Shown here: positions 35,160-50,147 of the stretch, in pieces
Position numbering within the stretch: position 1 is the first letter of the stretch
How the letters are laid out: every line of letters begins with the position of its first letter
Assembly: GCA_034722435.1 (NCBI GenBank)
Contig: JAYENX010000056.1
Span: 9,181-59,327, forward strand
Reading direction: 5' to 3'
DNA from: Nanobdellota archaeon
GTDB lineage: Archaea; Nanobdellota; Nanobdellia; Woesearchaeales; JAHWHD01
Length of the DNA: 50,147 bases
Notes under the pieces: model-generated
What the model was told of the DNA's origin: nothing
Seen by the model: only the letters and a program-made list of their open reading frames with translations
Databases searched by the model: none
Made by a program: the position numbers and the translations under genes

Positions 35160-35335
35160 GTTGCTTAACATAGTTATCACTAGTTCTTCACATAAAAATG
35201 TATTATAAACAAATGCAAACAGTATAGAATATAGCGGAGCATAGCTTACGCTAGATTGTTTATTCTGATCATTATTTTAAAAAAATGTTTAAAGAAAAAT
35301 AAAAAAATGATACCGTGCAATTCGTGGATTTCCAA

Positions 35336-38272
35336 GATGAACGGTTGGAAACTGCATGCTGAACCACTCGCCGAAGCTTGAGGCTTACACACCAGTTCCA
35401 TTAAACCTGTGTTTTACAGGAGCTCTACAATGTCTCTTTTCAAGGCGGGTTTCGAGCTTAGATGCTTTCAGCTCTTATCCCTTAATGCGTAGCTGCCCGG
35501 CATACCTTATCAGATAACCGGTCGACCAGTGGCATCGATCCTTCGTTCCTCTCGTACTAGAAGATTCTTCCTTTCAGACATCAACAATTCCAGTAGATAT
35601 CAAACAAACTGTCTCACAACGTTCTGAACCCAGCTCACGATCCCTTTTGATGGGTGAACACCCCCACCCTTGGACGCTTCTGCACGTCCAGGATAGGAAG
35701 AGCCGACATCGATGTAGCAAGCCGCGCCGTCGATTTACTCAAAATTTTGACGTTTTTTTGTCGAAATTTTATGAGCTCTCGGGCGCGACAACTCTGTTAT
35801 CCCCGGAGTAACTTTTCAGTCATTTCAAGCCCCCAATAAGGAGGACATTGAAGTTCGCTAGGCCAAACTTTCGTTTTTGAATTTCTTTCGATAGGAAACT
35901 CAATCAGGCTGGCTTTTGCCCTTGCACTCTACTCTGGATTTCTGACCCAGATGAGCCAACCATTGGGCCCTACTGATATCTTTTCAGCAGGGTGCCACCC
36001 CAGCCAAACTGCCCACATACCGCTGTCCCAAGATTTTCTCTCAGTTAGCAACGTAATTTCAGAAGAGTGGTGTTTCATTGGTGTCTATTCACGAACTGGC
36101 GTTCGTAACGTAACAACTCCCACTTACACTGTACAACTAAAATCACGTTACAACGATAAGCTGCAGTAAAGTTTCACGGGGTCTTCGCTTCCCACTGGAA
36201 TTCTCCGGCTTTTGCACCGGAAAAGAGTTTTCGGTGGATTCTAACTAGGGACAGTGACGATCTCGTTACGCCATTCATGCAGGCCGTCATTCAAACGGCA
36301 AGGCATTTCGCTACCTTAAGAGAGTTATAGTTACCCCCGCCGTTTACCAGCTCTTAGCTCAGTTGAAACCAAGTTTCAAGTACTGGCACTGGGCAGACGT
36401 CACCACCTGTACACACCCTTACGGGCTAGCAGGCAGTTAAGTTTTTGTTAAACAGTCGGACCGTCTTAGTCACTGCGCCCTGCAATCGCATTCATAAGAA
36501 CACAAAAGCAGGGACCCCTTATACCGAAGGCACGGGGCTAATTTGCCGAATTCCCTTAGTTAGATTAATCCATCACGCTTTAGGTTTCTCACCTAGGGGC
36601 ACCTGTGCTGGTTCTGGGTATAGATACCTAAGATTTGTTTTGATTCCTTTTTCACGGGCTCCAGATATCAGCCACATACCTCATACGAGATACTATTCCC
36701 AGATTTGGTCCAGTTCTCGCCATTACAGCACTCCCTGGACATATTCTGGTTAACATGAACGATGGTTCATGGTGACCTATTCAGAAACGTCAGAAATCAA
36801 ACTTGTGTTGCCACACATACTTAGGCAGTAAAGGAATATTAACCTTTTTCCCTTTCCTGACACTCGAATTACGAGCTCAGTTAGGATTAACTAACCCTTG
36901 ACTGATTTTCATTGTCAAGGAACCCTTGCCCTTTCAGCGGTACTGATTCTCACAGTACTCTGTTCCTACTACCACCGGGATCCTCATTTCTACCAGGTCC
37001 ACATCCTCTCACAAAAATGCTTCTACCCTAGCAGAACGCCTATCTATCATTCACTTTTAAGTGATCTACAGTATCGGTTATCAACTTAGCCCCGTCCATT
37101 TTCAAGGCCTATAACCTTGACAAGTAAGCTGTTACGCACTTATTATAGGATGGCTGCTTCTAAGCCAACCTCCTCGCTGTCTGTGGCTATAGACGCTTTT
37201 CACCCTTTAACACTTAGTTGATAATTAGGGACCTTAACTGTAGTCTGGGTTGTTCCCCTTTCGAGACTCACCCTTACGACGAGCCTCCGTCTCCCGAGGT
37301 CTACGATGCTCAAATATTCGGAGTTGGACAAGAAACCGAGGGATTTCTCCCCCTAAATCTCCAATCCGTATCTCTACCTTCATGAGCTATCTCGCTCGAG
37401 ACTTGACTGCGGCCAACTTTGATAGGAACCAGCTATCGCCGAACTCGATTGGCTTTTCACCCCTAACCCCAAGTTAGAAGAACACTTGTCCGTAGCACCT
37501 CTTCAGGCCTCCACAATGTTTAACCATTGCTTCACCTTACTCAGGGTTAGATCGTTCGGCTTCGGGTCGTATCCAAGTGACTAATGGCACGTTAGTACCA
37601 CGCCCCTTGCAAGCTGCGGGCATATCGGTTTCCCTATGAGTACTTTTTTACAAATTACTCTTGCCACTTAAATACACTCCCCGGCACGTTATTCAAAACG
37701 AACGGCACAACTCCTAAGAGCCGTACCCCTCTATGTCTGTTAGGTTTCAGAGTCTTTTCGCTCCCTATCAAGGGTTCTTTTCAACTTTCCATCACTGTAC
37801 TTGTTCGCTATCGGACTTTAAACGTATTTAAAGTTAGAAGTTATTGCCTCCCAGATTCCTGCTCAATTTCCAATGAACAGTACTCAAGATACTACTAGAC
37901 CTTTCAACTTTCCCCTACGTGACTATCACACTTTATAGTGCCTCTTTCCAGAGGACTTCAGGTCAGATGACTAAGGCTGAAAAGTAGTCTTACAACACCA
38001 CATCTCCTAACTATTTCTAGCAGGATTCAGTTTGCTTTGGGCCGTGTTCAGTCGCTCTTACTAACGGCATCTCAATTGATTTCTTTTCCTACAGGTACTA
38101 AGACGTTTCAATTCCCTGTGTTCCCAATCCTTACGGATTTTCTCCTAAGAGAAGGGATTTCCCATTCGGGGACCTTTGGTTCAATGACTACATGCGTCTC
38201 GCCAAAGTATAGTGTCGCTTGTCACACCCTTCATCAGCGTTAAAGCCAAGTCATCCACCTAACAGATTACAA
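35336..38272 (-). rRNA. rrl: 23S rRNA (archaeal) containing one 36-nt intron; ends approximate
   Basis: PTC segments GGGAUAACAG and CUCGAUGUCGG-like UACAUCGAUGUCGG, SRL AGUACGAGAGGAAC, 5' GGUGGAUGACUUGG. Confidence 0.97.
35735..35770 (-). other. BHB-type intron in 23S helix 89 (E. coli 2477/2478)
   Basis: Removal restores GAGAGCUCAU|AUCGACGGC; central helix GCUC/GAGU with bulges AU|A and AA|A. Confidence 0.85.
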
Positions 38273-38422
38273 AATTTGGAATTCCACGAATTATGCACGG
38301 TTTCATAAATATCAACCTCAAATCCTGAAAATACAATCAGGATTTGGTAAATTAAATGTCTGTTAAGACGTGAACTCACGAAAAATCGTTAAATTTTTCT
38401 AAGTCCTTTTGCTTGCGCAAAA

Positions 38423-38531
38423 TGGACCCGCCGGGACTTTCATCCACTAACAGGTCATTATATTAGTGATTTTTGAACCCGAGGCCCCCGCTTTGCAAGA
38501 GCGATGCTCTACCAGGCTGAGCTACGGGCCC
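38423..38531 (-). tRNA. tRNA-Ala(UGC) in the 16S-23S spacer; 35-nt intron at 59/60 (38437-38471)
   Basis: GGGCCCG...CU-UGC-AA...GGG-UUCA-AA|A...UGAA-AG|U-CCCGG; G3-U70 pair. Confidence 0.95.
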
Positions 38532-39315
38532 ATAAAAAAAATGAGGTAGGTTTGATTAAAATAATTAAAATAAAAAAAGGAGGTGATCCATCCGCAGGTT
38601 CCCCTACGGATACCTTGTGACGACTTAGCCCTCCTCACAAAGCTTAGATTCGAACTACCCAAAAGGTGGTTCTCATCTAAACCCTGCTCGGGTGGCTTGA
38701 CGGGCGGTGTGTGCAAGGCACAGGGACATATTCACTGGACGCTGATGACGTCCAATTACTAGGGATTCCAGCGTCACGAGGATGAGTTTCAATCCTCGAT
38801 CCGAACTTGGGTAAGGTTTCGAGGCTTAACTTCCCCTTTCGGGGTCGTATCCCATTGTCCTTACCATTGTTGCGCGCGTGTAGCCCAGAGGATTCGGAGC
38901 ATACTGACCTACCGTAGCCTGCACCTTCCTCCACGTTTCCATGGCAGTCTCTACAATGTGCACGCCTTCTAAAGAAAACGTTAGCAATTGTAGACACAGG
39001 TCTCGCTCGTTGCCAGACTTAACTGGACACCTTGCGGCACGAGCTGACGGCGGCCATGCACTACCTCTCGGCTCGTCAAGTAAGGTCTTTAGCCTGACTT
39101 TCATCCTGCCGTCGCCCCTGGTGAGATTTTCTGTGTTGAATTAGATTAAACCGCACGCCGCACCCCTTGTGGTGTGCCCCCGCCAATTCCTTTAAGTTTC
39201 AGCCTTGCGACCGTACTTCCCAGGCGGCGAGCTTAACACCTTCGCTCCGACACCGCGCATGTATTAACATACGCGACACCTAGCTCGCAGAGTTTACAGC
39301 TGGGACTACTCGGGT

Positions 39316-39417
39316 AGTTAGCGAGTGAATCATCATATAGCAACTTCTTTCGTTCACTTGTAATAGATTTATGGAACAACTTACAAGTTATTCCAGAAGT
39401 CAGACATGATTCCTCGT
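39316..39417 (-). other. 102-nt BHB intron in the 16S helix 24 (790) loop (E. coli 793/794)
   Basis: Central helix UUAG/CUAA, bulges AU|A and CU|A; ligation gives GGAUUAGAU|ACCCGAGUAGUCC. Confidence 0.9.
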
Positions 39418-39793
39418 ATCTAATCCGGATTGCTCCCCCAGCTTTCGTCCCTCACCGTCGGATCCGTTCTGGTTAGACGCCTTCGCCACTGGCGGTCCTT
39501 CAGGGATTATAGCATTTTACCGCTCCCCCCGAAATACCTCTAACCCCTCTCCGGTCCCAAGTCTGACAGTCTCTTTTGCACGCTGTTGAGTTAAGCCCAA
39601 CAATTTCACAGAAGATTTACCAAACAGGCTACGGACGCTTTAGGCCCAATAAAACTGGTTGCTACTTGTGGCGCAGGTGTTACCGCGGCGGCTGGCACCC
39701 GTCTTTCCCACCACTTATTCGCCAAGATTTTTACTCTTAACAAAAGCCCATACAATGTATGAGCACTTGGGGTTCCCTTATCACACTTGCGTG

Positions 39794-39832
<39 letters not shown>

Positions 39833-39904
39833 AGGACCAGTGTCTCAGTGTCCTTCTCGGGGCTACCTCTCTCAAGGCCCCTATTGATCGTCGGCTTGGT
39901 GGGC

Positions 39905-39947
39905 ATATAATTTTTCAAAAAGAAATTATAAGATTTCCTTCGAAAAT
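39905..39947 (-). other. 43-nt BHB intron in the 16S helix 11 loop (E. coli about 265/266)
   Basis: Central helix GUAA/UUAU, bulges AG|A and AU|G; ligation gives GGUGGGGUAAAG|GCCCACC. Confidence 0.85.
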
Positions 39948-40383
39948 CTTTACCCCACCAACAACCTAATCAACCGCCGGCTCATCCTTGGGCATTACTT
40001 TTGAAAGAATGCATTTTCCAATTACGTTCTCTTATCCGGTATTAGCCTCAGTTTCCCAAGGTTATTCCAGACCCAAGGTTAGATTATCGACGTGTTACTG
40101 AGCAGTTTGCCTCTATTACTAGAAGACTTGCATGGCTTAGTCGAACCCCAATAGCAGCAACCTCCCGCAGGATCAACGGGATTTGTTTCTATGGTCGCAA
40201 TTTTTCTTAGCTTATTAGGAATTTTTAGGATTTGATCTTTAATCAAACCTACTCATTCATGCTTAATATATCTCAATTAAGCATACATTGGTAAATATTA
40301 ACCACCTATATGTGTTTTCAGAATACAAATATCTAAAATATAGGTAATGGTGGCGATTAGTGTCTTTTTGGAGAAAGTGCTTG

Positions 40384-41900: not shown

Positions 41901-42737
41901 ATGCAAGAAGAAATTTTTAACATGCTGATGAAAGAGGATGACATTACTTGGCATGAGATTCTTACAGATCTAGTTAAATCAGAAAAGATGGACCCGTGGG
42001 ATATTGATGTCTCGACTCTTACAAAGAAGTATATAGATATGTTGAAGAAGTTGAAAGAGCTTGACCTAAAAGTATCAGGCAAAGTTATACTATGCGCTGC
42101 TTTACTTCTAAAAATGAAAAGTACAAGGTTGGTGGGTAGCGATTTACAGCGACTTGATGAGCTATTCTATCCTCCAGAAGAAGATGACCTATATAGCGAT
42201 GACGATTACGATCAATGGGCGTATGCGAAGGATGTTGTGAAAGGGGGAAAGATTAAACTTCTACCCAGGACGCCGCAGCCACGAAAAAGGAAGGTTTCAA
42301 TCTATGATTTGATGGAAGCATTACAGAAAGCTATGGAAGTTAAGCGTAGAAGAGTTATGCGTAATGTGCCGGAAGAACTCGAGATACGTCTACCAGCTAA
42401 ACAAATAGATATTTCAGTCGTTATACGCGAAGTTTTTAGCAGAATAAAATCGTGGTTTTTTAAAAATAATAAAAAGATAAAATTTTCTCAGCTAATCCCT
42501 GGCTCGTCTAAAGAGGATAAAGTTTACACGTTTATTCCATTGTTACATTTATCTAACCAAAGGAAAATCGAGATTTCTCAAGAAGAACATTTTGGGGATA
42601 TAGATATCGAACTTTCTAAGAATCCGCCTAAGAAAGAAGTTGAAGATAATGTGAATGAAGATAGTTCTGAGAAGAGCGATGGAGAAAGTAAAGATGTTAT
42701 TAAAAATAAAGATGATAAAATTAATTTCAAAGATTAG
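41901..42737 (+). CDS. scpA: Segregation and condensation protein A (kleisin)
   Basis: MDPWDIDV, ALLLKMKS, FIPLLHL...EISQEEHFGDI. Confidence 0.92.
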   Translation: MQEEIFNMLMKEDDITWHEILTDLVKSEKMDPWDIDVSTLTKKYIDMLKKLKELDLKVSGKVILCAALLLKMKSTRLVGSDLQRLDELFYPPEEDDLYSDDDYDQWAYAKDVVKGGKIKLLPRTPQPRKRKVSIYDLMEALQKAMEVKRRRVMRNVPEELEIRLPAKQIDISVVIREVFSRIKSWFFKNNKKIKFSQLIPGSSKEDKVYTFIPLLHLSNQRKIEISQEEHFGDIDIELSKNPPKKEVEDNVNEDSSEKSDGESKDVIKNKDDKINFKD

Positions 42738-42792
42738 TGTTAATCACCATATTATGATAATCTATATAAATACCTCCTTAATCTATTGAGAT

Positions 42793-43473
42793 ATGGTACA
42801 TATATTACAAACAGCATTCCATGGAAATCCTAATGTGGGACTTTACGCGTTCTGTAATGATAAGTTCTGTTTAATCGGAAAAGAAGTTCAGGAGAAGACT
42901 GCAAAAGAGATTGAGAAAGTGCTCAAGGTTCCAGTACACAGGATTACAATAGCAGGTACTTCACTCATAGGAGTGTTTGTTGCGGGCAATAATAAGAGGA
43001 TTTTGTTACCAGAGATTGTTTTCGAGAAAGAGCTTAAAGTTCTTGATGATTTAGGAATTGATTATAAAATTATAAAAACTAAGTTGACTGCGTTAGGCAA
43101 TAATATACTTTGTAATGATACAGGCGCACTTGCGAATCCAGACTTTTCAGCAGAGACTAAGAAACGTATAAGAGAAGCACTTGAAGTGTCTCTTAAACCA
43201 GGGACAATCGCAGATATTGAGACAGTGGGAAGTGTAGGAATTACATGTAAAGGCAGATGTTTAATCCATAGAGATGCGAATCTTGACGATTTTGAATACA
43301 TAGAAAGTTTATTAAATGTGAAATGTTATACTGGAACTGTGAATCTAGGGAATCCGTATGTCAAGTCAGGCGCGTTTTGTAACTCGAACGGATTTGTCAT
43401 AAGTAAGATGACTGGAGGACCCGAGGTTAGCAATGTTGATGAGTCGCTAGGGTTCTTAGGCGAAGATTCATAA
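42793..43473 (+). CDS. eif6: Translation initiation factor 6 (aIF6)
   Basis: GNPNVG, IAGTSLIG, ALGNNILCND, GTVNLGNPYV, TGGPE. Confidence 0.96.
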   Translation: MVHILQTAFHGNPNVGLYAFCNDKFCLIGKEVQEKTAKEIEKVLKVPVHRITIAGTSLIGVFVAGNNKRILLPEIVFEKELKVLDDLGIDYKIIKTKLTALGNNILCNDTGALANPDFSAETKKRIREALEVSLKPGTIADIETVGSVGITCKGRCLIHRDANLDDFEYIESLLNVKCYTGTVNLGNPYVKSGAFCNSNGFVISKMTGGPEVSNVDESLGFLGEDS

Positions 43474-43517
43474 GTTAAGTATTAATCAAAATCAAGTTTA
43501 GTTAAAATTAAAGTTAG

Positions 43518-43700
43518 GTGAAAAAAATGGTTGAACTATCAAATAAGGAAAAAGAGTTAATTGTACATCTTTTAAAAAAAGAGCTTAAACAAGTTGATAC
43601 GCCTGATGAAGGTGTAAGGTATGATTCTGATATAGCATATACTGCAATGGAAGAAAAATATGAAATCGTACTTGAGAAATTGATAAAGAGATTGAAATAA
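43518..43700 (+). CDS. Small hypothetical protein
   Basis: 60-aa helical ORF with GTG start between eif6 and pfdA. Confidence 0.6.
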   Translation: MKKMVELSNKEKELIVHLLKKELKQVDTPDEGVRYDSDIAYTAMEEKYEIVLEKLIKRLK

Positions 43701-43717
43701 TACTAAGTTGATATAAT

Positions 43718-44146
43718 ATGACAGATAACGAGAAAGAAGGAAAAAATACTGAAGACCTGCAACAGAAATATATGCAGATGCAAATGTTTCAGCAACAAAT
43801 GGAACAAGTACAGAAACAGCTTCAGTTGATGGAGAAACAGTTAGTTGAACTTGATCTTGTGAAAAAAGCACTTGGAGACCTTAAAAATGTTAAAGAAGAT
43901 GCTGAGATTCTTGTACCGTTAAGCTCAGGCATATTTGTGAAAGCTGAGTTAAAGGATAACAAGAAAGTCACAGTGAATGTTGGGAGAGGGGTTGCTACCG
44001 AGAAAACAATTGAACAGGCGCAAGAGTTAATCTCGCAACAGGCTGATGAACTTACAAAAGTTAGAGCGCAGCTTACAGAAGATATGAGTAAAATGGGGGT
44101 GCAGGCTAATGGTCTGCAACAAGAACTACAAAAATTGGTGAATTAA
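43718..44146 (+). CDS. pfdA: Prefoldin subunit alpha
   Basis: Coiled coils flanking EILVPLSSGIFVKA...VTVNVGRGV. Confidence 0.95.
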   Translation: MTDNEKEGKNTEDLQQKYMQMQMFQQQMEQVQKQLQLMEKQLVELDLVKKALGDLKNVKEDAEILVPLSSGIFVKAELKDNKKVTVNVGRGVATEKTIEQAQELISQQADELTKVRAQLTEDMSKMGVQANGLQQELQKLVN

Positions 44147-45817
44147 ATGTTTAAATTTCTTAAAGATAAACTAAAAAAGAGCGTTAATAAATTATCAGAA
44201 GATATTGAAAAAGAAGCTAAAGAAGAAACTCTTACTGAAGAAGAAGTTGTACAGGAAGAGAAAAAGAAGCCAGGATTTTTTTCTAAACTTTTTAAGAAAA
44301 AGGAAAAGAAAGAAACAGTTCTAGAAGAGTATGAACCCGAAGAATTGTTTGATGATAAAAAAGTAGAAGAAGATATTAAAGAAGAATATGAAGAAGTTGT
44401 ACATGAAGCTCCTAAGCAAGAGGTTACTGCCGAGAAAGTTATAGAGAAAGTACAAGAGTTAAAGGAGAAGGAAGAGGCTGAAGAAGAGAAAGTTGTTGAA
44501 GAAAAAATAGAAAAGAAGAAAGTTAAGGAAGAAAGAGAAGAGAAGAAGAAAGTTAAGAAAGAAGAAAAAACAGAAAAGGAAGAGAAGAGAGAAATAAAAG
44601 AAGAGATAACTGAAGAAATAGAAAAACCTAAAGAGGTTGAAAAAAAACCTACTGCTGCTGAGCTTGTGGAAGAAGCTGAAAAGGAAGTTATTGTTAAAGA
44701 GTTAAAAAAAGATATTAAAGATGCTAAGAAAGAGATTAAAGAAGCGTATGTTGATCATTCTAAAGAACAGTTTGAAAAAGCTAAAGAAAAGATTGTCAAA
44801 GTAAAGGAAGAAATTAAAGATATTGTTGAAAAGGAAGAAAAAGATGTTGTTGTTGAAAAACTGCAAGAAAAAGCTGACGAAATTGAGAAAGATATTAAGA
44901 AGGATAAAAAGGTTATAAAAGATCTGGAGCCAGAAGAGGAAGGTAAAGGATTTTTTGGCAAGTTAAAGCAAAAGATTGTTACTAAAAAGATTAATGCGAA
45001 ACAGTTTGATGAACTGTTCTGGGACATGGAACTAGTACTTCTGGAAAATAATGTTGCAGTTGAAGTTATTGATAAGATTAAAAGTGATTTGAAAGAGTTC
45101 TTGGTTGATAGACCTATACGTAGAGGTAAAGTGGCTGATACGATTATGAGTTCGTTACGTCATTCGCTTGAAAGTTTGTTCGAGGTTGAAAAAGTTGATC
45201 TTCTGAAAAGAGTTAAAGCTAAAAAACCGTATGTAATATGTTTTGTAGGGATAAACGGATCAGGTAAGACAACCACTATAGGTAAGATGTGTCAACTGTT
45301 CAAGAACCAAGGTTTAAAATGTGTAATGGCTGCCGCCGACACGTTCAGGGCGGCTGCAATCCAGCAACTGGAAGAGCACGCTAATAACCTAGGCGTTAAA
45401 ATTATTAAGCACGATTACGGAAGCGATGCTGCGGCTGTTGCTTTTGATGCAGTAAAGTACGCGACAGCGCACCATATTGATGTTGTCCTTGTAGATACTG
45501 CCGGAAGAATGCATTCTAATGCTAACCTTGTAGATGAAATGAAGAAAATTATTAGAGTAGCTACTCCTGATTTGAAAATATTTGTTGGAGAAAGTATTAC
45601 TGGTAATGATTGTGTTGAACAAGCTTCAAAGTTTGATGCTGCGATTGGTATAGATGGAATCGTGTTATCTAAAGCTGATGTTGATGATAAAGGAGGTGCG
45701 GCTGTATCGGTATCGTACGTTACCAAGAAACCTATACTTTATCTAGGTACAGGTCAAAGGTATGAAGATCTGCAAGAGTTTGATAGTTCTGTATTGTTAG
45801 AAGGTTTGGATCTTTAG
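44147..45817 (+). CDS. ftsY: SRP receptor FtsY with long charged N-terminal region
   Basis: GINGSGKTTT, DTFRAAA, DTAGR, SKAD, GTGQ. Confidence 0.97.
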   Translation: MFKFLKDKLKKSVNKLSEDIEKEAKEETLTEEEVVQEEKKKPGFFSKLFKKKEKKETVLEEYEPEELFDDKKVEEDIKEEYEEVVHEAPKQEVTAEKVIEKVQELKEKEEAEEEKVVEEKIEKKKVKEEREEKKKVKKEEKTEKEEKREIKEEITEEIEKPKEVEKKPTAAELVEEAEKEVIVKELKKDIKDAKKEIKEAYVDHSKEQFEKAKEKIVKVKEEIKDIVEKEEKDVVVEKLQEKADEIEKDIKKDKKVIKDLEPEEEGKGFFGKLKQKIVTKKINAKQFDELFWDMELVLLENNVAVEVIDKIKSDLKEFLVDRPIRRGKVADTIMSSLRHSLESLFEVEKVDLLKRVKAKKPYVICFVGINGSGKTTTIGKMCQLFKNQGLKCVMAAADTFRAAAIQQLEEHANNLGVKIIKHDYGSDAAAVAFDAVKYATAHHIDVVLVDTAGRMHSNANLVDEMKKIIRVATPDLKIFVGESITGNDCVEQASKFDAAIGIDGIVLSKADVDDKGGAAVSVSYVTKKPILYLGTGQRYEDLQEFDSSVLLEGLDL

Positions 45818-45822
45818 GTTAT

Positions 45823-45924
45823 AAAATCATGAAATGATTTTCAAAACATTTAAACAATAGAAATTGAAAAGATTTCTAAGTTAAAATGTTTGAAAATTAT
45901 GAAATAATTTTCAAAACATTTAAA
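45823..45924. promoter_or_regulatory. Two 32-bp direct repeats (70-bp period), each containing an 8-3-8 palindrome
   Basis: AAAATCAT-GAA-ATGATTTT and AAAATTAT-GAA-ATAATTTT, each followed by CAAAACATTTAAA. Confidence 0.7.
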
Positions 45925-45974
45925 TAGTAGATTTCGTATTTTTCTTTAAAAAACATATAAAGGGGGTGTTTTAA

Positions 45975-46307
45975 TTGGGAGAAGTAGAAGAAGGAAAAAT
46001 TTTTGCATTTCTTGGAGTTTTCTTAACAATTATAGGATTTATAATCGTAATGTTAGTTAAGAAAGATAATAAGTATGCTATGTACTATGCTAAGCAAGGA
46101 CTAATGTTGTTCATTGCTGGAATTATAGTAGGTATAATTGGATGGATATTAGTGTTCATACCATTTATTGGAATTGCAATCACTTGGTTGCTAAACGTAG
46201 TATTGCTTGTACTCTGGATCCTTGGATGGGTTTATGCTCTACAAGGGGAAATGAAACCAATACCTTTAATCGGACATTATGCCGAAGAATGGTTTAAAGG
46301 GTTATAA
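45975..46307 (+). CDS. DUF4870-like membrane protein
   Basis: YYAKQGL, IPFIG, KPIPLIG; TTG start. Confidence 0.75.
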   Translation: MGEVEEGKIFAFLGVFLTIIGFIIVMLVKKDNKYAMYYAKQGLMLFIAGIIVGIIGWILVFIPFIGIAITWLLNVVLLVLWILGWVYALQGEMKPIPLIGHYAEEWFKGL

Positions 46308-46309
46308 GT

Positions 46310-46675
46310 ATGGCAGTTACTGCTTTGGGCTTATTGTACGTGGTGATAGGCATTATTGTTTCAGCCATTTTTTTATGGCTGTTCGCTAGCTACGTATACA
46401 AGTGCAAGGAGAAAAACTTTATCACAGCATTTCTGATTGCTGCGATTATTGGAATAGTTACTTATGTGCTCGGGCTTTTTAGAGCCGAGTTCATGATATG
46501 GGTTAACCTGGCTGTTACAGTTTTCCTAGGAATCTTTTTGATAAAGAAATGGTACAACTTAAAATTACAAAAAACTTTACTTATATGGCTTACATGGTTT
46601 ATTGTAATGGTTGTGATAAGTTATCTGCTTAACCTTTTGACTCCTATCAGTTTTGCGACAGGAGTTATTGGATGA
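46310..46675 (+). CDS. Membrane protein (about 4 TM)
   Basis: Four hydrophobic helices. Confidence 0.65.
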   Translation: MAVTALGLLYVVIGIIVSAIFLWLFASYVYKCKEKNFITAFLIAAIIGIVTYVLGLFRAEFMIWVNLAVTVFLGIFLIKKWYNLKLQKTLLIWLTWFIVMVVISYLLNLLTPISFATGVIG

Positions 46676-47025
46676 AAGTATTTAGCATTTTTTTTATTTT
46701 TTTATTGATTGTTTCTATTGCTATAATGGGTTGTTCTAAAGAGACGTCAGTAGGTTCTGCTGTTGATGTTTTAGATAAAAATTCAAAAGTTGTCAATGCT
46801 GGAGAATGGTGCGTTCCAGGAAGTGAATGGGGACTTGATTTTGAAAGAGAAGGTCTTGAACCGGGAGAAGTATTCGTTAAAGGTGTTGAAGTAACTGGAG
46901 AGTATAAAGGACTCTGTAATGTAAAATATAAGGGTAGCTTTGATAGTGTAGAGTACTGGTTTAACAAAGACGGCAAAACAGGATATTATCAAGTTGGTGT
47001 TTTTGTCAGAGAATGGAGTTCTTAA
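46672..47025 (+). CDS. Lipoprotein, unknown function
   Basis: Lipobox IMGC. Confidence 0.7.
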   Translation: MKVFSIFFIFLLIVSIAIMGCSKETSVGSAVDVLDKNSKVVNAGEWCVPGSEWGLDFEREGLEPGEVFVKGVEVTGEYKGLCNVKYKGSFDSVEYWFNKDGKTGYYQVGVFVREWSS

Positions 47026-47126
47026 GTCATTTTATTATTAGTTTTATTAATGATACTTTCTACCTAAATTTATTTTAACAAACTATTTAAGCTAGATGTT
47101 TTCTTTTCTGTGGTGAGGTGGTTATA

Positions 47127-47438
47127 ATGGAAGAATATCCTGAACAAAATACAAAAGTGGAAGCAGATTGCGGTTGTGGAAGTTGTTGTAGTGAACATGA
47201 AGAAGATTCTAGTGACGATGAAGAATGGACAACAGAAGATACTGCTTATGAAGCACATAACATGATAGATGGTCTGATTGAAGTGCTTGAGAAGAAAGGA
47301 ATAATTACAAGAAACGAAGTTGAAACAATGATTGATCAGATGCTTGATAATAATGAATGTGAAGATGAAAGTGACGACTCTGATGAAGAAGAAAGTAGTG
47401 AAAATAATAGTGAAGAACCAAAGGAAGAAAGTAATTAA
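47127..47438 (+). CDS. Acidic protein with CGCGSCC cluster
   Basis: GGTGAGGTG SD before the ATG at 47127; ADCGCGSCCSEHEE; LIEVLEKKGII helix. Confidence 0.65.
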   Translation: MEEYPEQNTKVEADCGCGSCCSEHEEDSSDDEEWTTEDTAYEAHNMIDGLIEVLEKKGIITRNEVETMIDQMLDNNECEDESDDSDEEESSENNSEEPKEESN

Positions 47439-47468
47439 GTTACAAAAAGGAGTTATAAGGTGAGAGGG

Positions 47469-48137
47469 TTAGGAGTCGAAAAACTCTATCTCTCCCTTAT
47501 GATATATTCCTTTTTTTAATTCTACAGGGCGCCAGGTGTCAAGGACAAGCTCTGATTTAAGCCATTGTGCAAGTTCTTCCGGATTACCTATAGTTGCTGA
47601 AAGGCCAATGTATTGAGCTCTTGGCAAAAGTTGTTTTAAGATAGTTAAAAGGATTTCTAGAGTTGGACCTCTACCAGGATCGTTAAGAAGGTGTATCTCG
47701 TCAACCACTATTGTAGCTACATCTTTAAGCCAGGGTGTATGATGACGTATAAGAGAATCTAACTTTTCTGAGGTTGTGATAATGAGATCGTAGTTAGCAA
47801 GGTATGTGTCTTTCTTATCCATATCACCAATTGACAAAGATATGTTTGCATGTTCGCTATACCTTTTCATAAAACTTCTGAACTTTTCAGTCGCTAGTGC
47901 TTTAAGCGGAACAATGTAAATAGCTTTACCAACCCTGTTAATAATGGATGAGAGCATTGCGAACTCCGCTATCAAAGTTTTACCTGAAGCAGTAGGTGTA
48001 CAGATAAGAAGACTTTTTCTTTCAAGAAGACCTGCATTGATTGCTTTCTCTTGGCTAGGTCTGAGTTCGTCAATATCAGGTTTAAGAATATCGTAAAGTT
48101 CTGCAGGAATCTTTGATTTTATATCTTCAAGTTTCAT
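47469..48137 (-). CDS. Hel308/Ski2-like DExH helicase, N-terminal RecA domain only (222 aa)
   Basis: LRPSQ, TPTASGKT, VPLKALA, TTSEK, DEIH, LSAT, WRPVEL, then stop. Confidence 0.9.
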   Translation of the reverse strand: MKLEDIKSKIPAELYDILKPDIDELRPSQEKAINAGLLERKSLLICTPTASGKTLIAEFAMLSSIINRVGKAIYIVPLKALATEKFRSFMKRYSEHANISLSIGDMDKKDTYLANYDLIITTSEKLDSLIRHHTPWLKDVATIVVDEIHLLNDPGRGPTLEILLTILKQLLPRAQYIGLSATIGNPEELAQWLKSELVLDTWRPVELKKGIYHKGEIEFFDS

Positions 48138-48228
48138 TTTAAAGTATAGTTGTAAGTTTGTAAGTTCATAAGTTTGTGTTAAAGTAAAGAGCGATTATAA
48201 TATATATGAATAGGTGGTTTAAATAGGT

Positions 48229-49779
48229 TTATGGTCTTTGATCAGGGTTAGTGTCTTCAGTTATTTCTATTCTATAATTAAAACGTAATGACAGTTGTAG
48301 TATATCATCAGATAGTTCTTTAACTCCGATAAGGCCGCGAGGTTGGCCAATACCTTGAGACTCATGTTTATGTTTCTGTGGCGCTGGTTTATTTTTTACG
48401 TTTCGCAAGTTAGTAGCGGTTTTCATGATTTGTTTTCGACGTTCAGGTGAAATTTCTTGATAATGCTCCAGTAAAAAATCGGATCTAGTAGGGTGTCTTA
48501 AACTTTTCAAAGCTTTAGCTTCAATCTGTCTAATACGTTCTCTAGTAACATCGAATTTTAAACCTACTTCTTCGAGCGTTAACCCTCCTTGATTGCGGTT
48601 TCCAATTCCGAATCTAAAACGAAGTACAGATGCTTCTCTTGGATCTAAAGTATCTAGAACTGTTTCAAGGTCTTGTTTCAGTGTCGAGTCTGTGGCTGCC
48701 TGTTCCACGTCAAGTGCATTAGAATCAGGCACGAAATCGCCCAAGTACGAATTATCTCCGTCAGATCCTAAAGGAGTTTCAAGAGAAATAGGATTTTGTG
48801 CGGTTTTAAGTACATCTTCAACCTTTTTAGGGGACATCTTCATAGCCTCAGCAACCTCTAGAGTGGTTGCAGGCCTACCTAATTGCTGCGTAAGGTATAT
48901 TTGATGAGTTCGGACTTTGTTAATCATCTCGTTCATATGTACAGGAACTCTAACAGTTCTTGACTGGTCAGCTATAGCTCTAGTGATTGACTGACGAATC
49001 CACCATATTGCGTAAGTAGAAAATTTGAAACCTTTCCTGTACTTAAACTTCTCAACAGCACGGATAAGGCCTTGGTTACCTTCCTGGATAACGTCTTGTA
49101 AAGAAAGTCCTCGCCCGGAATATTTTCTTGCAACATTAACCACCAGTTTAAGATTAGCATTTATCATAAGGTCTTTAGCTACTTTATCACCCTTTTCTAT
49201 TCGTTTTGCAAGTTCGGCCTCATCTTCTCGCGAAAGAAGAGCGGTTCTGGCAATCTCCGTAAGATATGATTGAACATTATCGCTAAGTACAGTCGCAGTT
49301 TTTTTATTCTTTTTACCAGATTTAGCAGTCTTAGATTCTTTAGGTTTTATTATGATAGAACCATCACCATTAACATTATCCTCTTCATCCCCATCAATCC
49401 CGTAATCATCATTAATCCGATTAATTGACATGATATAAGATTCGAAGCAAGTGTTGAAACTATAAATGGAAAGTTCAGAATAAGAAAAATTAATATCTTC
49501 TTTAGCAAGGTCAAGGTCTTCCAATAGGGATTCTAATTGTTCAGGTTGAATCACATTTTGTTGGAGGGCATCAGAAGAAATAATGTCATCAGTCAATGCT
49601 CTAGATTGTAAAGAGGCTGCAAGGAAGTAAGTATCCTCGTCAACCTTTCGCATAGTTGATTGCGATAAATATGTTATATACTCTTGGGTACATCCTACAC
49701 GTTCAAGTTCAACAGTATTTATCCAAGTAAGGGGTTCTGCGTTTGTTATAAGATTTAGATATTTTTTAGAGGGATTCAT
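48229..49779 (-). CDS. Primary-type (RpoD/SigA-like) sigma-70 family protein
   Basis: Region 1.2 [10 protein letters not shown]; 2.1-2.4 [43 protein letters not shown]; region 3 PISLETP; 4.2 [19 protein letters not shown]. Confidence 0.95.
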
Positions 49780-50147
49780 TTTTTAATGGGTTCAGTGTTT
49801 TCATATTGTTGGATTTTCGGAATTTTAGGCCTTATTGCTTTCAGTACTTTATAATGAACATAGAGTTTACCCCCGATCACCATACTTGTAGCGAGTAAAG
49901 GTTGAATTTTTTCTGATCGTCCATGTCTCCCCGTACGAATATGGCTAAATGTTACACCTAATGTTTTTTTTGTTGTATTTGCATGTTCAGCCATTTCGTC
50001 CATCGACATATACCCCGGAGGCACGTCTATTTTTTTATAGGGTGTGCGTTTACAAGAAGGCGCCTTTTGGTTATGTATAAATTCGCATAATTCTTCAAGG
50101 TCTTCTTGAGGATAGTACCTGTATCCAAATCTTCTTTCTAAACTTTT
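49776..50147 (-). CDS. MerR-like HTH protein, 5' end beyond the window
   Basis: Frame is open to the window edge: [20 protein letters not shown]...[21 protein letters not shown]; ATGA overlap with the sigma start. Confidence 0.6.

Follow-up and report, generated by a model that had tools for sequence, protein, structure and literature searches.

A complete RpoD-derived sigma-70 gene with a coupled partner on a variable island of a Woesearchaeota chromosome

The stretch of DNA analysed here (50,147 nucleotides (nt), hereafter the window), which ends where its contig, C56, ends, comes from a Nanobdellota archaeon whose source lineage is, through the names of its relatives, Candidatus Woesearchaeota. 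An open reading frame (ORF) at 48229-49779 on the minus strand encodes a protein of 516 amino acids (aa), and we confirmed that it is a complete sigma-70 of RpoD descent, from region 1.2 to region 4.2. Sigma factors are a textbook marker of bacterial transcription, and Archaea initiate with TBP, TFB and TFE. An earlier note, made from the letters of the window, had proposed an intact bacterial primary-type sigma-70 in an archaeal chromosome; the four Pfam regions, the closeness to SigA/RpoD and the archaeal synteny described below bear this out. As to function, we favour, with a probability of about 0.45, an accessory sigma-type DNA reader that would act with the product of a coupled partner gene on a few targets.

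The matter reaches beyond one gene. Sigma-70 is kept in about four in ten high-quality genomes of a DPANN phylum, and no bacterial polymerase is seen in these. The choice is between a reuse of sigma domains as DNA readers that act alone and an archaeal polymerase that is able to use a sigma. If the protein docks on the archaeal enzyme, then sigma-dependent transcription exists in Archaea, and the window copy, the least diverged archaeal sigma among those compared, is the best candidate for the bench. With about 90% of the RpoD-conserved positions, a defined partner and orthologs, it suits both binding and in vitro transcription tests.

Sigma regions and genomic setting

All four Pfam sigma regions were found in order in the ORF, with scores far over the cut-offs, which places the protein in the sigma-70 family. 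Region 1.2 (PF00140, Sigma70_r1_2, 46.5 bits) spans aa 167-199 (49183-49281, minus strand, as for all parts of the gene). Region 2 (PF04542, 77.9 bits) covers aa 205-275 (48955-49167) and contains the core-binding helix 2.2, the melting aromatics and the -10 readers. Region 3 (PF04539, 67.9 bits), at aa 284-359 (48703-48930), comes with the region 3.2 finger or linker, and region 4 (PF04545, 61.7 bits), at aa 374-429 (48493-48660), holds the helix-turn-helix (HTH) that reads the -35 element. RpoD models were on top of the NCBIfam ranking, and the nearest solved structures in the PDB were primary SigA/RpoD proteins (314 bits, compared with 195 bits for RpoS). All the RpoD equivalog cut-offs were missed (NF004208, 395 against 555 bits; NF006666, 376 against 572; TIGR02393, 319 against 354), and so was the curated score for the group 2 factor RpoS (TIGR02394, 280 against 378.7).

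We then looked at individual residues, using the alignment with E. coli RpoD and its numbering. The core-binding residues D403, E407 and N409, the melting aromatics Y430, W433 and W434, the -10 readers Q437, T440 and R441 and the -35 readers R584, E585, R586, R588 and Q589 are all present, in agreement with the earlier note, which had seen these four sets retained. Of the 119 positions with at least 90% conservation among 33 bacterial group-1 sigmas, 107 are kept; regions 2.3, 4.1 and 4.2 are complete (22 of 22 positions in region 4.2), and region 3.2 has 14 of its 15. One exchange concerns the polymerase contact itself: a Q replaces L402, which contacts beta' and does not vary among the 33 bacterial sequences. 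A Pfam scan gave no match of the protein to region 1.1 (PF03979), and this domain was also unmatched in its nearest bacterial relatives (P0001-P0005).

The surroundings of the gene are archaeal. The window carries archaeal 16S and 23S rRNA genes at 35325-40183 as well as genes for ScpA, eIF-6, prefoldin, FtsY and Hel308, and the tfb gene mentioned in the earlier note was found at 1838-2767 on the plus strand. The source genome (1.3 Mb, completeness 94.5%, contamination 2%) encodes one Rpb1-type and one Rpb2-type polymerase subunit in the archaeal rpoB-rpoA' arrangement. A search for rpoB and rpoC, which the earlier note had suggested, returned this archaeal polymerase alone, and no bacterial RNA polymerase was found in the genome at that completeness. 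The GC content at third codon positions (GC3) of the sigma gene is 0.266, compared with 0.237 ± 0.046 for the genome, 0.288 for the adjoining Hel308 gene and 0.43-0.86 for the nearest bacterial rpoD genes; its codon fit lies inside the range of the genome.

A variable island and a sigma-plus-partner subfamily

The sigma stop codon is separated by an AT-rich spacer of 91 nt (48138-48228) from the start of a co-oriented gene, at 47469-48137 on the minus strand, that the earlier note had described as an archaeal helicase gene. It encodes the N-terminal (RecA1) half of Hel308 (222 aa, positions 1-219 of about 720 in the NCBIfam model), and this gene is the conserved right flank of the region. The remainder of Hel308 begins with a separate ATG at the end of contig C31 (37439-37658) and continues on C20. 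In all of 80 Woesearchaeota loci the RecA1 half is a separate ORF of about 220-250 aa, and no C-terminal half was found within 4 kb of it in these 80 loci. Hel308 is thus a natural split gene, and the short helicase gene marks no assembly break.

The adjacency of sigma and Hel308-N is explained by synteny. The comparisons rest on two genomes flagged as unpublished: G001, a sister species, whose locus is also in GenBank (GCA_019323525.1), and G002, which belongs to another genus of the same family. In G002 and in a public locus (L075, JAHWHG010000018.1) the genes for Hel308-N and an M50 protease are divergent neighbours. In the window genome Hel308-N, sigma and the partner run to the contig end, which lies 368 nt from the sigma gene, and the M50 ortholog lies at the start of contig C23, 43 nt in. 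In the sister species Hel308-N starts 40 nt into a contig, and another contig (G001 C59) joins M50, a gene of 460 aa, a partner of 579 aa, sigma and one further gene. Searches for exact copies of the sigma and Hel308-N proteins of the window returned no other contig. Logan contigs carrying the orthologous sigma were found in three independent runs (DRR851358, 21.6 kb; SRR11241199, 19.4 kb; DRR851359, 8.3 kb). In the two longest the order is Nre, MazG, M50, the 460-aa gene, partner, sigma, genes of 476 and 531 aa and Hel308-N, followed by three small genes, a DUF4870/MamF-like gene, FtsY, prefoldin, eIF-6 and ScpA; the part to the right is collinear with window 41901-48137. In this genus, M50 and Hel308-N enclose the sigma module as an inserted island, whose content differs between the two species. 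Cargo of a mobile element was one of the options of the earlier note. It stands in a weak form, that of a lineage-specific variable island; no integrase, repeat, phage or other mobility gene was seen among the island neighbours, which were unmatched in PHROG, Pfam and PADLOC.

The two ends of the protein, which the earlier note had called atypical over about 165 N-terminal and 80 C-terminal residues, are indeed so, and neither matches Pfam. In place of region 1.1 there is a lineage-specific part (aa 1-165; 49285-49779), which begins with a helical domain (about 100 aa) and continues as a disordered linker rich in acidic and basic residues. AlphaFold2 gave it helices with confidence values (pLDDT) of 55-86 for aa 1-100 and below 50 for aa 102-162, and the N-terminal domain folded by itself reached 47.5. 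Among 301 genomes of the order this domain is confined to this genus, its sole relative there being in the G001 ortholog. A search of genome contigs and one of 5.8 billion clusters returned no relative; an exhaustive profile-free search of 1.84 billion representatives yielded one further full-length carrier, P0127, a sigma of 577 aa. P0127 is encoded on an archaeal contig of 211 kb at a locus different from that of the window, and its surroundings include genes with RNA_pol_Rpb4 (Rpo4-type), L21e, SepF and TruD domains. At the other end, the C-terminal extension (aa 437-516; 48232-48471), delimited by alignment with G001 and by the P0127 sequence, consists of a basic low-complexity linker and a conserved strand-like end motif (FSFDLRVNFEISV in G001, FSLSLNYTLRINL in P0127); no paralogous copy of this tail was found elsewhere in the genome.

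The gene upstream of sigma is seen in the window as its 3' end only (49776-50147, minus strand, 123 aa), since it runs off the contig. Its stop codon overlaps the sigma ATG by 4 nt (ATGA) in the window and in G001, and a gap of 6 nt separates the two genes in the case of P0127. The complete partners have 579 aa in G001 and 535 aa upstream of the P0127 sigma. These two are homologous (E 2e-8); the window's fragment matches the G001 partner weakly (E 0.002 over 39 aa). A search for relatives of the partner returned only the partner itself. Judged by their sequences, the window, G001 and P0127 proteins form a subfamily composed of an RpoD-derived core, a lineage-specific N-domain, a basic linker and a conserved C-terminal motif, and in all three a familyless gene of about 550 aa, translationally coupled to sigma or closely abutting it, precedes the sigma gene.

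The closest database relatives of the window sigma are bacterial RpoD proteins from dnaG-rpoD operons, with a core identity of 60-63%. In the maximum-likelihood tree it falls in a clade (support 98/98) with nine Woesearchaeota sigmas and 16 bacterial RpoD, the latter from Muiri-, Rifle- and Wallbacteria-type and unnamed lineages; ten further archaeal sequences form a second group elsewhere in the tree. Monophyly of all 21 archaeal sigmas was rejected by the approximately unbiased (AU) test (p = 0.0005). A single origin of the nine archaeal sigmas of the clade was borderline (p = 0.043, for a group named after the tree had been seen). Sigma-70 therefore appears to have entered these archaea, or to have been exchanged with them, more than once.

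A very recent transfer from bacteria was also considered for the window copy, and this idea is weakened: the more diverged P0127 has the same N-domain, C-motif and partner, and a clade of the window, G001 and P0127 sigmas was not rejected (AU p = 0.32). The end branch of the window sigma measures 1.02 changes per column, about five times the tree median of 0.18 (0.02-0.23 for its nearest bacterial relatives), and in a quick tree the end branches of the trio differ greatly (about 1.1, 1.6 and 3.95). Since P0127 carries the N-domain, the C-motif and the partner, the window sigma is better read as belonging to an older archaeal sigma-plus-partner module, of which it would be the slowest-evolving member, than as a fresh import.

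We compared the window sigma with its G001 ortholog according to the conservation of each site in bacteria. The two proteins agree at 79% of the sites that are at least 90% conserved, at 38% of the intermediate ones and at 18% of the variable ones; a bacterial pair of like overall divergence is slightly tighter, with 86% at the conserved sites. Overall the two archaeal sigmas are 45% identical (54% in the core), compared with 93% for RpoA' and 82% for Hel308-N of the same genomes. These identities show a gene that, as read from the alignments, is under site-specific purifying selection in archaea, yet is evolving much faster than housekeeping genes. The earlier note had proposed examining whether the DPANN copies form a clade under purifying selection; the selection is seen, whereas one clade of all 21 is what the AU test rejected.

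Other archaeal sigmas were surveyed as well. In diverged archaeal paralogs region 3.2 is lost first, with 20-73% of its conserved positions left; regions 2.2 and 4.2 are maintained, as is region 2.3 in most. Over 42 archaeal sigmas, the tabulated core-binding, melting, -10 and -35 residues are each retained in 25-40, most of them in at least 33, and the DNA-reading residues in 34-39.

Several other sigma genes came to light during this survey. A second paralog (G000:C9:16116-16934; L002 1498-2802), of 434 aa and 40% identical, lies mid-contig between TrmI-like and NOL1/NOP2/Sun methyltransferase genes and belongs to the same bacterial-archaeal clade as the window copy. The third (G000:C59:2593-3447; L003 55-2364; 769-834 aa) adjoins elp3 and has, ahead of a sigma core with strongly diverged regions 2.1, 2.4 and 3, five units of about 55 aa in tandem; the top PDB match of a profile of these units was RacA (MerR-like winged HTH), at an E value of only 0.083. 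Another Woesearchaeote (L156, G041:C3:16500-22700) has four sigma-70 genes in tandem; two of these share 54-57% identity with the window core and group as sister to Muiribacteriota RpoD (96/91). In a further Woesearchaeote, a Sigma70_r2 match of 87 bits (G114:C5:268794-268997) lies inside an open frame of 1763 aa that may be a giant sigma fusion.

Possible roles of the sigma and its partner

Free E. coli sigma-70 is masked by its region 1.1, which keeps it from binding DNA. The window sigma has no recognisable region 1.1 and probably binds DNA alone; because this mask is absent, it could bind -35/-10-like DNA unaided, with the HTH of region 4.2 on a -35-like element and regions 2.3 and 2.4 on a -10-like element. 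Together with the coupled partner it would probably regulate a few targets, as an accessory regulator rather than a general initiation factor. The distribution of the domain supports an accessory character: among 401 high-quality genomes from the phylum, Sigma70_r2 occurs in 156 (39%), where it is often multi-copy, and four archaeal genomes used as controls have none. A general role is disfavoured by the promoter counts. With 0, 1 and 2 mismatches, TTGACA-N16-18-TATAAT occurs 3, 94 and 1204 times in the genome, compared with 2.7, 80 and 1182 times in shuffled sequences, and no genome-wide excess is thus seen. We also counted for a DNA reader the sparing of regions 4.2 and 2.2 while older paralogs lose region 3.2.

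Local promoter scans gave values about 2 standard deviations over shuffles, in AT-rich spacers that resemble archaeal TATA boxes, and were not used as evidence. In the two spacers at the island borders (window 48194-48223 and L039 1774-1802, both minus strand) we noticed TTTAAA-N17/18-TATAAT, which in DNA as AT-rich as this is inseparable from archaeal TATA boxes.

Several points weigh against an accessory DNA reader. In bacteria the core-binding, melting and region 3.2 features matter only on RNA polymerase, and a purely polymerase-independent role leaves the retention of helix 2.2, of the melting residues and of region 3.2 unexplained. Most of the 42 archaeal sigmas retain the polar residues with which helix 2.2 binds the core enzyme (D403 in 40, Q406 in 33, E407 in 37, N409 in 36), and likewise the melting aromatics (Y430 in 39, W433 in 36, W434 in 37), and the near-complete region 3.2 of the window copy belongs here too. 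The HTH nature of the N-domain and of the partner is putative only: the structural neighbours suggested for the N-domain, AbiEi-type winged HTH domains with a template-modelling (TM) score of about 0.4, are a weak lead, and the partners, like the window's fragment, were unmatched in Pfam, PHROG and PADLOC. Finally, the idea that the partner corresponds to the HTH-like repeat array fused to the third paralog was rejected as unsupported; a hidden Markov model of the five repeats misses both the ORF upstream of the window sigma (E 5.9) and the G001 partner.

The retained helix 2.2, melting and region 3.2 residues therefore keep alive another explanation, in which the protein is a true archaeal sigma. 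Its region 2.2 would dock on RpoA', at the clamp coiled coil that corresponds by homology to the beta' clamp helices of bacteria, and, helped by the partner, it would direct the archaeal polymerase to a few -35/-10-type promoters, alongside TBP and TFB or in competition with them. The core-binding, melting and flap-contact residues found in most of the 42 archaeal sigmas, and almost complete in the window copy, speak for this, as do the archaeal nature of the genome's sole polymerase and the persistence and expansion of sigma genes in 39% of the phylum's high-quality genomes. We nevertheless hold it to be unlikely. Across 28 Woesearchaeales, sigma carriers and non-carriers alike, the RpoA' coiled coil (residues ~231-263) does not vary, so that no sign of co-adaptation is seen; sigma-70-type promoters are not in excess genome-wide; older paralogs have lost the region 3.2 finger; and the literature searched reports no sigma bound to an archaeal polymerase. 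A co-fold of sigma aa 160-290 with RpoA' aa 1-340 scored 0.26, short of the 0.32 mark, and we count it for neither side.

Less probable still is a passenger of the variable or mobile island, drifting from a horizontally acquired bacterial rpoD and either functionless for the cell or serving the island alone. The island position and the gene content that differs between sister species would fit such an origin, and so would the very fast evolution relative to housekeeping genes, the patchy distribution and the sigma genes reported on DPANN viruses and prophages (PMC12647753). This is opposed by intact frames in three diverged members, by the strong site-specificity of ortholog conservation (79% versus 18%), by the conservation of the N-domain, the C-motif and the partner themselves and by a codon use that has adapted fully to that of the genome; nor was any integrase, repeat or phage gene found beside it.

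We regard as very improbable an effector that, delivered to a bacterial neighbour or host or expressed there, would reprogram transcription by its RNA polymerase. Such a target would account for the retention of all the contacts to bacterial core. A protein that keeps 90% of the RpoD-conserved positions, region 3.2 included, and whose core is 60-63% identical to the housekeeping RpoD of dnaG-rpoD operons might serve such a purpose. However, no export or delivery machinery lies beside the gene, whose neighbours match nothing in Pfam, PHROG or PADLOC; we know of no bacterial host for Woesearchaeota; the L402 contact to beta' is a Q; and region 3.2 has decayed in other archaeal paralogs.

A bacterial fragment misjoined or misbinned onto the archaeal contig at 48137-48229, the chimeric join suspected in the earlier note, might have accounted for the nearness of the contig end, a sigma GC content slightly over the window mean and top database matches that are bacterial, and is rejected because, on single spanning Logan contigs from three runs, the same two archaeal genes flank the orthologous module, the G001 assembly ties it to the other flank, M50, and its GC3 and codon use are native and match those of the adjoining Hel308-N gene, while two more sigma paralogs sit mid-contig among archaeal genes.

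Two observations made elsewhere in the window are recorded here. The second cyclin repeat of its TFB passes the Sigma70_r4 gathering score (26.5 against 24.1 bits); a faint similarity between the HTH domains of sigma and TFB is known. In the 16S-23S spacer (38474-38531, minus strand) a tRNA-like Rfam match of 58 nt (34.8 bits), unreported by ARAGORN, may be a truncated or intron-containing tRNA.

Comparison with known systems

With bacterial RpoD/SigA (B. subtilis SigA, PDB 7ckq, and E. coli RpoD) the window sigma shares regions 1.2 to 4.2 in order, all canonical residues and, by its place in the 98/98 clade, a position among group 1 sigmas. Unlike them it has no region 1.1, does not stand in a dnaG-rpoD operon, has no bacterial core enzyme in its genome, scores below the equivalog cut-offs, bears extra N- and C-terminal parts and sits on a long end branch.

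MzaA of the MZA anti-phage system likewise has a sigma-70 core preceded by an unrelated extension, and its genomic context is accessory too. The window sigma differs in that its match to MzaA, 327 bits against a cut-off of 800, is limited to the shared sigma core. Membership in the MZA defence system was rejected on this score, and the neighbouring genes match no PADLOC model. Sigmas of phages and mobile elements (PHROG 351) resemble it as accessory cargo, and its core matches phrog_351 with 308 bits; it differs from them in that no phage genes were found on its island and that the host polymerase is archaeal.

The nearest parallel lies within the DPANN archaea, whose sigma-70 genes were reportedly described by Rinke and colleagues in Nature in 2013. 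More recently, rpoS-like sigma genes were reported on DPANN viruses and prophages (PMC12647753, 2025). Castelle et al. (2021, PMC8204110) describe a family of such genes, fam00359, as "particularly prevalent in Woesearchaeota"; in the excerpts available of that paper mis-binning is excluded, anti-sigma factors are not found and the mechanism is left open. As in the window, these sigma-70 genes occur among archaeal markers in Woesearchaeota, and those excerpts place no anti-sigma factor or bacterial polymerase nearby. Their account, as excerpted, covers presence and prevalence. The window sigma is a further member of these already published DPANN genes, to which the present analysis adds the island between M50 and Hel308-N, the architecture of N-domain, C-motif and partner, the unusually high retention of RpoD-conserved positions and the rejection of a single origin of the archaeal sigmas.

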